DNA of 64,000 nt from the NCBI GenBank assembly GCA_000004695.1, contig CM000151.3, positions 7,264,001 through 7,328,000 on the forward strand. The letters run 5' to 3'. The notes beneath the pieces are model-generated. The model was not told the origin of the DNA and searched no databases. It saw nothing but the letters and a program-made list of their open reading frames with translations. Positions within the stretch are counted from its first letter, which is position 1. Every line of letters starts with the position of its first letter. Shown here piece by piece: positions 2,546-61,458 of this stretch. This DNA comes from Dictyostelium discoideum. Lineage: Eukaryota. Both the position numbers and the translations under genes were made by a program.

Positions 2546-2807
2546 AATACCCCCAATCACACATATTACAAAAATGGATATTGAATTCAACTGTTTTTTT
2601 TTTTTTAAATATTAATTTTTCATTTTTATCATTATTATTATTATTATTATTATTATTATTATTAAAATTATTTTTTTTTTTAGGGGGGCACCCCTCTTTT
2701 TTTTTTTAGGATTGTATGTGTGAAGTTAATTTAAAAAAAAAAAAAAAAAAAAAAAAAAGCAGTTGAATTCAATATCCATTTTTGTAATGTGTGTGATTGG
2801 GGGTATT
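2546..2807. repeat. 48-bp inverted repeat (arms 2546..2593 and 2760..2807, one mismatch) around a tandemly sub-repeated core; candidate foldback/MITE-like element
   Basis: Arm 1 is aatacccccaatcacacatattacaaaaatggatattgaattcaactg; arm 2 is its reverse complement, with inner ends cagttg/caactg and an EcoRI site. Between and before the arms there are two to three direct copies of a roughly 145-bp unit (taatttttcatttttat...attaaaatt...ttttaggggg[t/g]acc...ctttttttt) at about 2467..2545, 2611..2710 and a partial copy at 2828..2850. A related fragment (gtgattgggggtatt plus acaaaaatgg) recurs at 54307..54365. Confidence 0.7.
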
Positions 2808-3533
2808 AAAAAAATTTTAATAATAATACTAAATAATTTCATTTTTATTATATAATTTTTTTTTTATATATTTATTTTTATTATTTTTTTTTTATTATTT
2901 TTTTTTTATTATTTTTTTTTTTATATAGAATTTTTTTATAATTCAATCTTTTAGAATTATGTCATACTATTAAGATAGGTTTATTTAATTTTTTTAATTA
3001 ATTGGGAATTATTTGTAAAAAATATATTTAAACTTTCAATATAAACAAATTGTCAAGTTTAAATATATTTTTTGCTTAGTACTTTCCAATTTATTTAAAA
3101 TAATTAAAATAAATATATTTAAATAGTATTACAATAATTAACTCTTATTTTTAATTTCTAAGAAATTGAGATTATATTTATCTCTTTTACTTTTTTATTT
3201 TTTTTTATTTATGTTTGTTTTATCTTGAGTTTTAGTTATAATTAAAAAAGTTGGAATATAAAAAATAAAATATTTAAAATAATTTTTAATAAAAAAAAAT
3301 AATAAAAAAATAATAAAAAATAATAATCAAATAAACCAACTTTAATAGCACAACCATAAAAATAAAATCACAAAAAAAATATCTAAAAATTTCGAGCTTG
3401 GGTTGTCATTTTTATTTTTGTCAATTGTCACAAAATTTATTTTTTTAATTTTTTTTTTTTTTAATAAAAAAAAAAATTGATTATAGAAAAAAAAAAAAAA
3501 TAATGGTTCAAAATTTTAATTTCACTCACAAAA

Positions 3534-5288
3534 ATGAAACTTAGTATTGTTACTTTTATTGTAACAGTAGTTGTGTTATCAGTGATCTATATTTATAATA
3601 GTTCAACATTATTAGAATCTAGAGTATTGAAGGATTATGTTGAAAAGTATGATCCAAATTATAAATGGACATTAAATGCAACTTATAACACTAATGTCTC
3701 AACAATTTACATATTAGAATTAAGTATGTTTTTTTTGGATAATAATAATTGTTTAGAAAAATAAAAAAAATAAAAAAAAAAAAAAAAAAAAAAAAAAAAG
3801 TGAAAATATTAATATATATTGATAACATATTATTAAATAATTTTTTTTTATTTTTTAAATAATTATGTTAATTAGCATCACAAAAATGGGATATGGGAAA
3901 TTCAAGTAGTCCACTTTGGAAACATTGGTTAACAGTTTGTATACCAAATAATGCAACAGAAAATTTAGAAACTGGTTTATTACTTATTGATGGAGGTTCA
4001 ACAGTGAATTGGGCAGTACCAAGTGTTAATGGTTGGAGTTCTTTTGGTCAACAATTATGTAAAACATCAAATGAAATTACAGCAACAGTTCAACAAGTAC
4101 CAAATGAACCATTGATTTTTGATAATAATGGTATTAAAAGATCAGAGGATGGTATTGTTGCACTCACATGGCGAAAATATATTGATACAAAGGATTCAAA
4201 TTGGGTTAGTTTACTTCCACAAACTAAATCTGCAATTAAAGCAATGGATGCAGTTCAAGAATTTGGTAAAGAAATTGGTAAATTTTCAATTAAAAATTTT
4301 GTTGTAACTGGTGCTTCAAAGCGTGGGTATGTATTTAAAATTATTTTTTTATTTTTTTTAATTTTATTAATTTTATTAATTTATTATTTTTTAAATTGTT
4401 ATTATTATTATTTTTATTATTATTTATTTCAAAAGATGGACAACATGGGGTACAGCAATGTCATCAGATAAACGTGTTGTTGGTATTGCACCAATGGTTA
4501 TACCAATTTTAAATGTTGCAGAAAATATTGGATCACAAATGCAAGATCTTGGTGAATGGTCATTTGAATTATATGATTATATTCAAAATGGTATCACAAA
4601 TTTCCTTTATACAAAATATTTTGATAATCTTAGAAAGATCATTGACCCAATTAATTATATTAATACATTGGAACCAATTGCAAAATATGTATTAAATGCA
4701 GCAGATGATGAATTCTTTGCAGTTGATAGTCCAAAATTCTTTTATAGTAAATTAAAAGGTGAGACTAGATTAAACACCTATCCAAACACTAATCATAATG
4801 GTATTAAGAAACAAGCAGTTGCCAATGATATTGTAAACTTTTTCAAATTGGTCGCATTTGGTATTGAACGTCCAGAGATTGAATGGTCAATTGAATACTC
4901 TCAAGATAAAAACTTTGGTACAATTAAAATGAAAGTTTTAAAAGGTGTACCAACTAAAATCTCCTTATGGTTTTCAACAACAATTTCAACAACAATGAGA
5001 GATTTCCGTATGTATACATGTGAAGATGCTTCATGTTATCAAAATCTCGATTGGCAATCCATTGATATTGAAATCTCACCAGAAAACAATTATTTCTATA
5101 CAATGGAAAAACCAGCTGCTGGTTGGACTGGTTTCTTTTATCAAGTTGAATTTGAAACTGGTTCATATTACTCAACTGAAGTATCAATTGTACCAGATAT
5201 TTTACCTTTCCCAAAATGTCCAATGTCAGTTTGTGCTTCTGGTATTCCAGCTTATAAAAATAAAACTTTAGAAATAGAAAATAATTAA
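3534..5288 (+). CDS. PhoPQ-activated pathogenicity-related protein (bacterial PqaA-like, Pfam PhoPQ_related), about 497 aa
   Basis: Three exons: 3534..3723, 3876..4326 and 4436..5288, with donors GTATGT at 3724 and 4327 and acceptors AG at 3874-3875 and 4434-4435. Splice phases are confirmed against the inverted paralogue at 17651..19492 (...SQKWDMGNSSSPLWKHWLTV versus SQQWMSGHTDKPIWKHWLTI; GASKRGWTTWGTAMSSDKRVVGIAPM versus GASKRGWTAWGAAMVDKRVIGIAPM). It has an N-terminal signal peptide. Confidence 0.8.
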
Positions 5289-5336
5289 TTAATTAAAAAA
5301 AAAATAAATTTATTTATTTTCAAAATTAAAACTTAT

Positions 5337-59292: not shown

Positions 59293-59545
59293 ACTTTGAT
59301 GGTTATCCTCTCTTTCACTTGTTGATTCATCATTTTCATTCTGTATATTATGTTTCTTTAATCTATAAATTCTTTTTCTACTTTGATATTTACATTTTTC
59401 ATATTGTAATACTAATTCTCTATAATTTTTAAATGTTGTAAAATAACTTTTTTTAAAAAAATGAATGAATAAATAAATTAGTAAATTAAATTAATTTTTT
59501 TTTTTTTTTTTTTTTTTTTTTTTTTTTATTATTTTAATTTAAAAC

Positions 59546-60991
59546 TTACATAAATAATAATAAAAATAAAGAAATTAAAATTAATTGAAAATAACCTAAA
59601 CCAATTGGACCAATGAAAAGATATTGAGTATTACCAGAAAAGAATAAATTTAAAAGTTTTTCAAGGGTTGAGAGTAAGAGATTGATAGTTGGAGAATTTG
59701 AGAAATTTTTAAAACTTTTTCTTGGTATTGAAGAGGAATCATCCAAAGTAGCCAATAGGAAATGGTAAACGATATTTGCAGTTTCTTTGATGAGATCAGG
59801 ATCGAGATGATTTGGTTGATCACTTAATTCACCACTAATGAATGGCTTTTCAATGTCATTTGAGGAATGAGAATTCTCACCGTAAAAGTAATCGTTATCA
59901 GTGAGTAACATCGAGTCGACGCCAGCCCATGTGAATGGACCCTCGTCGCCTAAATAAGAGATCGAGTGTAAATGGTAACGGTGGGCTTGATACATCACCG
60001 ATACGCCAATACTCGAACTGCTACCCACCGCAATACCATCGACTGGATTCACAGCGTAGGCAGATTGCACCATTGAATTGACCAACCAACGTGGTGTGAA
60101 CAACGTCTGATGTTTATGTTCGTAGGGCAATGTCTGAATCATGACCCTATCATTGCCAATCGTATCTATATTCAAAAAGTAGGCTATCTCTGATTGAGAT
60201 GCCATCTTTGAGATTTTATTATTCGATACGAAACTTCTGCTACCCAATGCACCTGGATTCTCTTGATCAAACAATATAAACATGTATGGCGTATCGTTGG
60301 GAATACCCTCCATCTTTGACACTGCTTCTTGATGTCTAAATAATTCAATAGCCTCCTCTATCACCAATCCTGTACCTGATAAACAATCATGTGCTCCTGA
60401 TGTTCTATCTGGTGATCCCCAATATTTCGTATCGTAATGTGATGAAATTATTCTAATTGCTTTATTTTTACTATCATCATTACTACTATTTGATGATGAT
60501 GATGATGATGATGATGATGATGTTGTATTTATCCATATTATAATATTTATACCTGTCCAAGTTGTAGTTGTAATATTTTTACCTTCAGCTTTTCTTTCGT
60601 TCCATTCAAAATGATTCCAAATTATATTATCCTTTGGGAATCCACCCTCCTCAATTAAATAATCTCTAATGTATTCTCTTGCTATACTTCTACTTTCTTC
60701 GTAAACAATTTTTGAATTTCCAATTTCAATCAATCTTTTTGTATGATTTATAATTTTATCTGGCCTTATATTATTCCTTATTTTATCATTATTATCATTA
60801 TTATTATTTTTATTATTATTATTATTTTTATTATTATTATTATTATTATTAATTATATTATATATATTTTTATTATTAATTATATCATTTGAATCATTGT
60901 AAAAATATCGGGATATAAAAAATAAGATAATAAATACAATAAATGTAGTAATTAAATTTTTATTAAAATATAAATTTAATCCTTTTTTCAT
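59546..60991 (-). CDS. Peptidase M28 family Zn-metallopeptidase with an N-terminal signal anchor and C-terminal TM helix, 481 aa
   Basis: A single ORF with ATG at 60991. M28 metal-ligand motifs are ISSHYDT (His), GAHDCLSGTG (GA.D..SG Asp), ILFDQENPGALGSRSF (EE/GS-type Glu) plus downstream Asp/His. It has a poly-Asn/Ser insert. Confidence 0.75.
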   Translation of the reverse strand: MKKGLNLYFNKNLITTFIVFIILFFISRYFYNDSNDIINNKNIYNIINNNNNNNKNNNNNKNNNNDNNDKIRNNIRPDKIINHTKRLIEIGNSKIVYEESRSIAREYIRDYLIEEGGFPKDNIIWNHFEWNERKAEGKNITTTTWTGINIIIWINTTSSSSSSSSSSNSSNDDSKNKAIRIISSHYDTKYWGSPDRTSGAHDCLSGTGLVIEEAIELFRHQEAVSKMEGIPNDTPYMFILFDQENPGALGSRSFVSNNKISKMASQSEIAYFLNIDTIGNDRVMIQTLPYEHKHQTLFTPRWLVNSMVQSAYAVNPVDGIAVGSSSSIGVSVMYQAHRYHLHSISYLGDEGPFTWAGVDSMLLTDNDYFYGENSHSSNDIEKPFISGELSDQPNHLDPDLIKETANIVYHFLLATLDDSSSIPRKSFKNFSNSPTINLLLSTLEKLLNLFFSGNTQYLFIGPIGLGYFQLILISLFLLLFM

Positions 60992-61387
60992 TTATTTGTA
61001 AAATATTTTTTAAAAAAAAAAAAAAAAAAAAAAAAAAACTAATTTTATTTTGATTTAATTTTTATTTTATTTTTATTTTTATTTTTATTTTATTTTATTT
61101 TATTAATTATTTTATTATATATCTTTAATTATTTGAATTATTAAATGGTCAAAAAATTGAAAAAAAAAAAAAAAAAATAAAAAAAAAAATAAAAAAAATG
61201 AAAAGCAAAATGAAAAAAAAAAAAATTAAAAGAAATTAATTAAAAAAAAAAAAATAAAAAAAAAAAATGTGTTCACATTTTTAAGTCATTTTTTTTTTTG
61301 CCTCGGAACCAAAATGGAACTTTTTCATAACAATTCAAGTGTTTCTAATCTTTTTCTTTTTTTCTTGAATTTTTTTTTTTTTAAATA

Positions 61388-61458
61388 ATCAAAAATGGAA
61401 ATTGAGACAATTAAAAATAAAAAATAAAATCAATCAATTGTCTCAATTTCCATTTTTG
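61388..61458. repeat. Perfect hairpin inverted repeat: 25-bp arms and a 21-nt loop
   Basis: atcaaaaatggaaattgagacaatt...aattgtctcaatttccatttttgat. It lies in the head-to-head intergenic region between the M28 peptidase start (60991, minus) and the CARMIL-like gene (62201, plus). Confidence 0.9.

Follow-up and report, generated by a model that had tools for sequence, protein, structure and literature searches.

The window analysed here, a 64-kb stretch of Dictyostelium discoideum AX4 chromosome 2 around the cortexillin II gene ctxB, is 79% A+T and encodes proteins that exactly match AX4 cortexillin II (ctxB) and AX4 Rheb. Gene calls carried over from orthologous annotated loci onto the window by end-mapping delimit 31 intergenic regions, comprising 7 divergent (7,585 bp), 18 tandem (10,943 bp) and 6 convergent (1,537 bp) regions. 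The original prediction, a reading of this same DNA, had likewise counted seven divergent regions; the figure stands if a small plus-strand gene near 23.3 kb is included, a gene backed by a weak Pet100 match and by a D. firmibasis gene call, and falls to six otherwise. Divergent regions account for 27-38% of the intergenic bases. Within them lie four long inverted repeats (IR1 to IR4), and the probable origin of these repeats is the subject of this report.

Requiring a perfect arm of at least 14 nucleotides (nt), a dinucleotide entropy of at least 2.6 bits, at least three G or C residues and a loop of at most 400 nt, we found that exactly four complex inverted repeats pass the filter in the window, and that none with arms between 14 and 24 nt does so. 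The perfect cores measure 29 nt (IR1), 29 nt (IR2), 35 nt (IR3) and 27 nt (IR4), and the arms are separated by spacers of 166, 12, 1 and 23 nt, respectively. Controls run on the window under the same filter returned no mirror repeats, no complement-only repeats and one direct repeat. Markov simulations of order 1, 3 and 5 gave an expectation of 0.2-0.27 inverted repeats of at least 14 nt per 64 kb, and an arm of at least 20 nt arose in only 1 of 180 simulations. The single-strand DNA hairpins predicted for the four repeats have energies of -25 to -77 kcal/mol, with z-scores of -9.8 to -17.4. The four repeats are real and not a product of chance, and the simulations together with the mirror and complement controls bear out the earlier claim that such arms are improbable even in AT-rich DNA. 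That claim had also described all four repeats as having long perfect arms. Their existence holds, and their perfection does not for IR1 (47/48) and IR3 (93.7%); the arms given as 28 bp for IR2 and 25 bp for IR4 are indeed perfect but were drawn slightly too short. The further suggestion of cruciform-prone sites agrees with the hairpin z-scores as a physical property and has no bearing on origin or function.

Table 1. Coordinates of the inverted repeats and of other features in the window
Feature	Position	Strand	Description
IR1 left arm, derived	2546-2593		45-48-nt insertion in T-tract; reverse complement of right arm
IR1 right arm, ancestral	2760-2807		Single copy in relatives; between A26 run and A7 run
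Two direct ~90-nt copies flanking IR1 left arm	2461-2548 and 2606-2710	+	Each ends with a GGGGG..CC box
Older, nearly AT-only inverted repeat	3017-3035 / 3055-3073		19-nt arms AAAAAATATATTTAAACTT / AAGTTTAAATATATTTTTT, 19-nt spacer; found by self-BLAST
IR2 left arm, derived	9776-9804		Within a 30-32-nt insertion with TAAA microhomology on its flanks
IR2 right arm, ancestral	9817-9845		Single copy in ACTFIR and ACTFIW
U2 small nuclear RNA gene	13209-13423	+	Rfam, 76 bits
U2 small nuclear RNA gene	17193-17407	+	Rfam, 73 bits
IR3 left arm, ancestral	52227-52297		Diverged single-copy orthologue in D. cf. discoideum
IR3 right arm, derived	52299-52369		Absent in D. cf. discoideum; present with an 11-nt gap in ACTFIW (L009) and ACTFIR (L012)
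IR4 left arm, ancestral	61386-61412		Single copy in ACTFIR, ACTFIW and D. cf. discoideum
IR4 derived insertion: spacer and right arm (61436-61462)	61413-61462		Inside an A-rich tract
Perfect 20-nt tandem duplication of the AX4 lineage, AAAAAATGATAAATATTCCA x2	61612-61652	+	Sole complex direct repeat under the filter

Inverted pairs of like length but low complexity, A(n)/T(n) or (AAT)n/(ATT)n, are present in other intergenic classes. In the window, A(n)/T(n) pairs measuring 25-34 nt lie at 21360-21586, 9596-9738, 9863-10115 and 49373-49493, the last of these in a tandem region. A start-codon-like AAAAATGG occurs in three of the repeat arms, opening frames of 6-10 codons directed toward the repeat centre, and was taken as an AT-rich coincidence.

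We compared the window with 14 orthologous loci from seven other assemblies, fetched via the GH18, PhoPQ-related, Rheb and ctxB proteins. The comparators form five groups: an AX2-like assembly; ACTFIR together with ACTFIW; D. cf. discoideum (ACTFIZ); D. citrinum; and D. firmibasis. The AX2-like genome (GCA_054883475.1) was assembled separately from long reads and matches the window at 99.3% identity; ACTFIR and ACTFIW, named here by their locus-tag prefixes and both labelled D. discoideum, differ from AX4 at 4-5% of aligned sites; and D. cf. discoideum shows about 87% identity by BLAST. Long-read assemblies of AX2-214, the tropical D. discoideum strains CR116C and OT3A, the possible cryptic species M4B and S6B and D. 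citrinum strains were reported in 2025 (PMC12745789). That set appears to be the source of our comparator assemblies, the accessions having been matched to strains by inference.

Each arm was searched by blastn-short against every locus and followed in multiple and pairwise alignments. At all four loci, relatives have one arm at the orthologous position as ancestral, single-copy sequence, and the other arm is derived. This comparison of the arms between isolates, already suggested alongside the original prediction, proved decisive. IR1, IR2 and IR4 were seen in AX4 only (IR4 in the AX2-like assembly as well), and IR3 has both of its arms in ACTFIW and ACTFIR too. The ancestral state, with the donor present and the copy absent, is backed by at least two outgroup lineages for IR1, IR3 and IR4 and by one for IR2.

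At IR2, where the arms are complementary at 29/29 positions, the left arm is absent in both ACTFIR (L005) and ACTFIW (L013), and the right arm in these two assemblies has an extra 11-13 nt within it. The arms of IR4 are equally perfect (27/27). The left arm of IR4 is conserved at 27/27 positions in ACTFIR and ACTFIW and at 20/22 in D. cf. discoideum (L010 13953-13974), and the spacer and right arm are missing from all three. Because the IR3 and IR4 sequences are identical in the separately assembled AX2-like genome, an assembly artefact is ruled out for these two repeats. The 20-nt tandem duplication of AAAAAATGATAAATATTCCA shares the intergenic region of IR4, some 150 nt away from it, and ACTFIR has a single copy of this sequence. 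The IR4 intergenic region also contains, at 61781-61960, a long (AAT)n run opposite an (ATT)n run about 110 nt away, a low-complexity inverted pair.

The IR1 locus has a more complex history. Its arms are complementary at 47/48 positions around a perfect 29-nt core (2565-2593 / 2760-2788), and extend to 87 nt at 89% when the flanking T and A runs are counted. The left arm is absent from the ACTFIR (L005) and D. cf. discoideum (L006) alignments. The right arm has a single-copy orthologue in ACTFIR (L005 8777-8809, 97% over 33 nt) and a diverged homologue in D. cf. discoideum (L006 ~9310-9345). The ~90-nt sequence that AX4 carries in two direct copies is present once in ACTFIR and is followed there by about 190 nt with two ACTGTGGTGAAGTT motifs that are missing from AX4; D. 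cf. discoideum is like ACTFIR. These alignments indicate that IR1 belongs to an AX4-specific multi-step rearrangement, in which a ~90-nt direct duplication would have accompanied the replacement of ~190 nt of ancestral promoter sequence, and the putative event resembles serial template switching.

The IR1 intergenic region also holds the older, nearly AT-only inverted repeat listed in Table 1, which sits inside a 178-nt stretch (2960-3133) that is 77.5% self-complementary. It is identical in ACTFIR and partly retained in D. cf. discoideum, and therefore predates the four repeats reported here. According to the transferred ACTFIR gene call, the EF-hand gene at this locus seemingly starts at 2285, its short first exon being followed by an intron, in place of the start at 2151 used in the original prediction; the IR1 intergenic region is thereby reduced to 1,248 bp. 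Beside the IR1 region, the EF-hand gene is duplicated in tandem in D. cf. discoideum, and D. firmibasis has two tandem PhoPQ-related genes in place of the EF-hand / PhoPQ divergent pair of AX4.

IR3 is a 143-nt spacer-less palindrome (52227-52369), perfect over the outer 35 nt of its arms. Overall the arms are complementary at 67/71 positions (94.4%), with the 4 mismatched pairs lying inward of the perfect 35 nt. The left arm alone is found in D. cf. discoideum (~80%) and, in part, in D. firmibasis; in ACTFIR and ACTFIW, the right arm has an 11-nt gap plus substitutions of their own. Three of the four arm mismatches are AX4-specific substitutions in the right arm. The fourth (G/A) is common to all three lineages, and there the right arm has the outgroup base, as expected if it was copied from the left arm before the left arm mutated. 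This pattern suggests that IR3 formed after the D. cf. discoideum split and before the split between AX4 and ACTFIR-ACTFIW, and the repeat looks as though it has since been decaying as unconstrained sequence would. A compensatory double change in IR3 was considered as a sign of selection for pairing and is weak at best, because it occurs in ACTFIW only, ACTFIR having changed in one arm; the matching change in ACTFIW could reflect arm-to-arm conversion.

Long palindromes are unstable, and the same distribution could in principle have arisen in reverse, with ancestral palindromes preserved in AX4 and one arm independently deleted in the relatives. At IR2, gain and loss cost one event each, and the 11-nt indel in the right arm of IR3 shows that arms do suffer deletions. 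At IR1, IR3 and IR4, however, loss would need at least two independent and precise removals of the same arm against one gain, and the missing arm is cleanly absent, with its flanks aligned. Moreover, the two arms of each of IR1, IR2 and IR4 hardly differ from one another, against a background divergence of 4-5% between AX4 and ACTFIR/ACTFIW, which marks these three repeats as young. We consider arm loss a distinctly unlikely account of the four repeats.

The relation between the derived arms and their neighbours is unusual among the differences that separate these lineages. A scan of ~46 kb of MAFFT alignments between AX4 and ACTFIR/ACTFIW recovered 194 indels of at least 10 nt, among which only the IR1, IR2 and IR4 insertions and the 11-nt indel of IR3 match the reverse complement of complex sequence within 400 nt over at least 12 nt. 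The three insertions match over 23-29 nt and the IR3 indel over 17 nt, compared with 8-16 nt in the mirror and direct controls. In ~220 kb from other lineages, the only complex inverted repeat with arms of at least 16 nt is the IR3 orthologue in ACTFIW and ACTFIR.

We propose that each of the four inverted repeats is a recent local inverted duplication produced by a template switch or fold-back, a reading to which we assign a probability of about 0.75. The events are polarised and lineage-specific, each derived arm stands in an exact reverse-complement relation to sequence beside it, and no other copies occur in the sequence examined. As for the molecular mechanism, we infer template switching or fold-back synthesis. 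A growing DNA strand would leave its template during replication or break repair, copy a few tens of bases nearby, either from the opposite strand or from itself folded back, and then go back to the original template, so that the new segment would be the exact reverse complement of neighbouring existing sequence. The switch points lie in or beside A/T homopolymer tracts or short microhomology (TAAA). IR1, IR2 and IR4 would have arisen in the AX4-bound lineage after its separation from ACTFIR/ACTFIW, and IR3 earlier. In the four-point template-switch model, the reverse complement of one fragment takes the place of another fragment close to it, which yields inverted repeats and hairpins in one step (PMC5453318), and expansion of inverted repeats by template switching has been described for yeast promoters (Rozenfeld et al. 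2026, PMC13100816). Consistent with such a model, donor and copy lie within short range at all four loci, and other replication-error products are found close by, namely the ~90-nt direct duplication at IR1 and the 20-nt tandem duplication at IR4. A single event covers the whole cluster of differences at IR2 and most of that at IR4; IR1 involves extra steps, and IR3 is too old to resolve.

Several observations weigh against this proposal. The mechanism is read from the outcome in the sequence alone. Copies of 27-71 nt, and an IR1 donor ~200 nt away, seem long beside the short template-switch events of primates, which are described as short-range and for which only copied fragments of at least 14 bp were kept (PMC5453318). 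IR1 takes several steps, with a direct duplication and a replacement, and 6 nt (TCAATC) in IR4 are unaccounted for by the copy. Arm loss at IR2 is formally as parsimonious as gain, because the comparison there relies on one outgroup lineage (ACTFIR and ACTFIW), D. cf. discoideum being unalignable at this position. The comparison with a second assembly of the AX4 lineage covers two of the four repeats, IR3 and IR4. No event of comparable kind is present in the ~220 kb from other lineages, which is unexplained; that comparison is itself biased, because the finding exists only through the repeats that AX4 carries. A 16-mer, CAAAAATGGAWATTGA, is common to the arms of IR1 (2569-2584, 2769-2784) and IR4 (61390-61405, 61443-61458), is absent from IR2 and IR3 and occurs nowhere else in the window, against an expectation of 0.09. 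By a rough estimate, the chance of so good a match among six arm pairs is ~2%; the ancestral IR1 arm in ACTFIR fits CAAAAATGGAWATTGA less well (13/16), and the sharing could reflect chance or a shared promoter motif. Finally, the location of all four repeats in divergent regions (nominal P 0.005-0.06) is unaccounted for by the template-switch model.

Insertion of foldback or miniature inverted-repeat transposons that favour promoter regions, or the survival of their remnants, would also place inverted arms around a short internal spacer and leave them absent from related genomes, and Dictyostelium repetitive elements are known to give rise to microRNA (miRNA) loci (thug-S; PMC6161686). Against this, one arm was already resident as single-copy sequence at the orthologous site at every locus, and no further copies of the arms were found in the window, in ~290 kb of related loci (14 loci) or in metagenome contigs. 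No target-site duplication flanks any whole repeat, the TAAA at IR2 flanking the inserted arm only, and the four repeats have no terminal sequence in common. The original suggestion of foldback-element remnants is contradicted by the single-copy ancestral arm, the lack of other copies in the sequence searched and the lack of target-site duplications, and we regard a transposon origin as extremely improbable. Transposon-excision footprints, the palindromic nucleotides left when a hairpin is opened, span no more than a few bases and were set aside.

The transferred gene calls place all four repeats between divergently transcribed genes, as first claimed, and the accompanying statement that tandem and convergent regions lack palindromes of this kind holds for complex inverted repeats of this size in the window. 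The length-weighted probability that four of four fall in divergent regions is 0.020, or 0.005 without the doubtful 23.3-kb gene, and about 0.04-0.06 over that portion of the window for which strain comparators exist and in which divergent and tandem lengths are equal. The excess is nominal and weak, and the association is suggestive only, because the hypothesis was framed only once the pattern had been seen and because n = 4; the divergent-only placement may reflect chance or a modest bias in tolerance. Two explanations for the placement were tried and rejected. Strand-symmetric pairs of A-runs and T-runs as a nucleating feature of divergent regions were dismissed because A(n)/T(n) pair density is the same in tandem regions, and a generally greater tolerance of insertions because indels of at least 10 nt number 39 and 39 in equal compared lengths of divergent and tandem sequence.

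The placement had led to the suggestion of functional bidirectional-promoter elements, that is, symmetric sites for a dimeric factor coordinating both divergent genes. The repeats lie 258-433 nt from the nearer start codon, and the ancestral arms are complex islands in low-complexity AT-rich DNA that are fairly well conserved, as seen for the left arm of IR4 (27/27, 20/22). A G-box-like TGTGTGATTGGGGG lies in the right arm of IR1, a 16-mer is common to the arms of IR1 and of IR4, and the expansion of inverted repeats in yeast can change promoter output (PMC13100816). However, the same divergent gene pairs are kept without the repeats in ACTFIR, ACTFIW, D. cf. discoideum, D. citrinum and D. firmibasis, which contradicts this part of the original prediction. 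The symmetry is derived and young, IR3 decays like unconstrained sequence, and the arms (27-71 nt) far exceed the length of a factor site and are otherwise unrelated to one another. A promoter-element function is very unlikely on this evidence.

Alternatively, in line with the origin-associated structures named in the original prediction, divergent promoter regions might contain replication origins or fork-stalling sites, of which the repeats would be a consequence or a component. Such a relation would agree with the nominal excess in divergent regions and, by analogy, with the origin-dependent inverted-repeat amplification (ODIRA) model, in which template switching between leading and lagging strands near origins is an inverted-duplication route (PMC10766183). 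Yet divergent and tandem regions are alike both in how often they contain indels of at least 10 nt and in their density of A-run/T-run pairs, and the relatives have the same regions without repeats. We consider it very unlikely that origins or stalling sites underlie the four repeats.

Compatible with local inverted duplication is a reading in which template switching would have made newborn genes for hairpin RNAs, as precursors of miRNAs or of small interfering RNAs, that would now be expressed. The four repeats have strong predicted hairpins; most miRNA loci of D. discoideum form hairpins between genes and have T-tracts upstream (PMC6161686); few amoebozoan miRNAs are traceable between species (PMC11014262); and template switching is proposed as a source of new miRNA hairpins (bioRxiv 10.1101/2023.04.19.537475). 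On the other side, no arm string appears in the available portions of the supplementary text of two miRNA surveys (PMC6161686 and PMC11014262), and the Rfam scan of the window matched no family at the four repeats. That the repeats would already serve as hairpin-RNA genes seems very unlikely.

The local inverted duplications are probably neutral, most likely by-products of mutation and not maintained elements. The kind of mutation is already known; a full-text literature search found no publication on inverted repeats, palindromes or template switching in Dictyostelium, and hence no Dictyostelium report of this class. A bolder extension, which we regard as unlikely, is that template-switch inverted duplications in the NC4/AX lineage would be unusually frequent and long and would prefer divergent promoter regions, forming a steady source of new cis-regulatory symmetry and hairpin-RNA genes. 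Origins or transcription-replication conflicts in those regions might cause the preference, and each event would duplicate a conserved promoter island in inverted orientation and make a hairpin. If this were true, sister isolates without each event would be natural before/after alleles.

The four repeats are polarised and dated events in a genetically tractable organism whose sequenced sister isolates carry the 'before' allele, and such before/after pairs are usable for testing promoter output, small-RNA production and locus instability. They also call for caution in motif and structure searches, because a long palindrome that stands out in a Dictyostelium promoter can be the fresh product of a mutation and not a regulatory element. 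If the density in the window holds genome-wide, template switching would be a substantial source of intergenic divergence in this AT-rich genome.

Other features of the window and of the related loci were noted in passing. The Rfam scan of the window found two U2 genes only, and there are no tRNA genes in the window. Each U2 gene lies downstream of one of two plus-strand paralogues of ~950-1000 aa (10148-12949 and ~13816-16680), and the gene and U2 pair looks like a tandem segmental duplication of ~3.9 kb; both paralogous protein genes are found in ACTFIW too, so the duplication is not AX4-specific. The M28 peptidase gene has introns. Within genes, a perfect 20-nt AT-only palindrome, ATAATATTTATAAATATTAT, and a 27-nt near-palindrome, AAATTTTATCATTGGATGATAAAATTT, lie at 43846-43865 and 47677-47703, respectively. 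In the tandem region between the 437-aa gene and Rheb, ACTFIW (L009) and ACTFIR (L012) have 28 extra bases relative to AX4 at ~56786, AATGGATCCATGCGCGCATGAAAAAATT, which are unusually G+C-rich and include ATGGATCCAT and CATGCGCGCATG, both of them short perfect palindromes. Synteny differs between relatives at L006 7013-8833, L008 7722-11820 and L002 13980-18823; in D. cf. discoideum, for example, two additional genes separate the 437-aa gene from Rheb.

Among known systems, the closest parallels to consider are template-switch mutations (the Ripley quasi-palindrome model; Loytynoja and Goldman 2017, PMC5453318), which likewise consist of a derived exact reverse complement of nearby sequence that creates a hairpin in one step and are detected against a close relative with the ancestral state, some having flanking indels or replacement, as at IR1. 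The Dictyostelium repeats differ in the length of the copies, in donors up to ~200 nt away, in a density of three to four events in 64 kb and in switch points within A/T homopolymer tracts. The expansion of inverted repeats in yeast promoters (PMC13100816) is similarly recent, lineage-specific growth in promoter-containing intergenic DNA recognised by comparative genomics. In yeast, however, imperfect repeats were homogenised and extended, whereas here the second arm was created outright; and the yeast events were chosen within confirmed factor-binding sites, with an effect on GRE2 expression, whereas the Dictyostelium repeats are known from sequence.

Foldback and miniature inverted-repeat elements resemble the four repeats in their pair of inverted arms about a short spacer, in their non-coding location and in their absence from relatives, but here one arm is resident and there is no copy family, target-site duplication or common terminus. 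Palindromic AT-rich repeats (PATRRs) of human chromosomes 11, 17 and 22 are several hundred bp long and mediate translocations. IR3 is like them in being near-perfect, spacer-less and AT-rich, with predicted cruciform extrusion and an arm symmetry that varies by lineage; it differs in its size of 143-169 nt, and IR1, IR2 and IR4 differ in having spacers. Complex rearrangements attributed to fork stalling and template switching (FoSTeS) or microhomology-mediated break-induced replication (MMBIR) arise by serial template switching over kilobases to megabases. IR1 is similar to these in combining an inverted copy, a direct duplication and lost intervening sequence with junctions at homopolymer microhomology, on a scale of tens to about two hundred bases.

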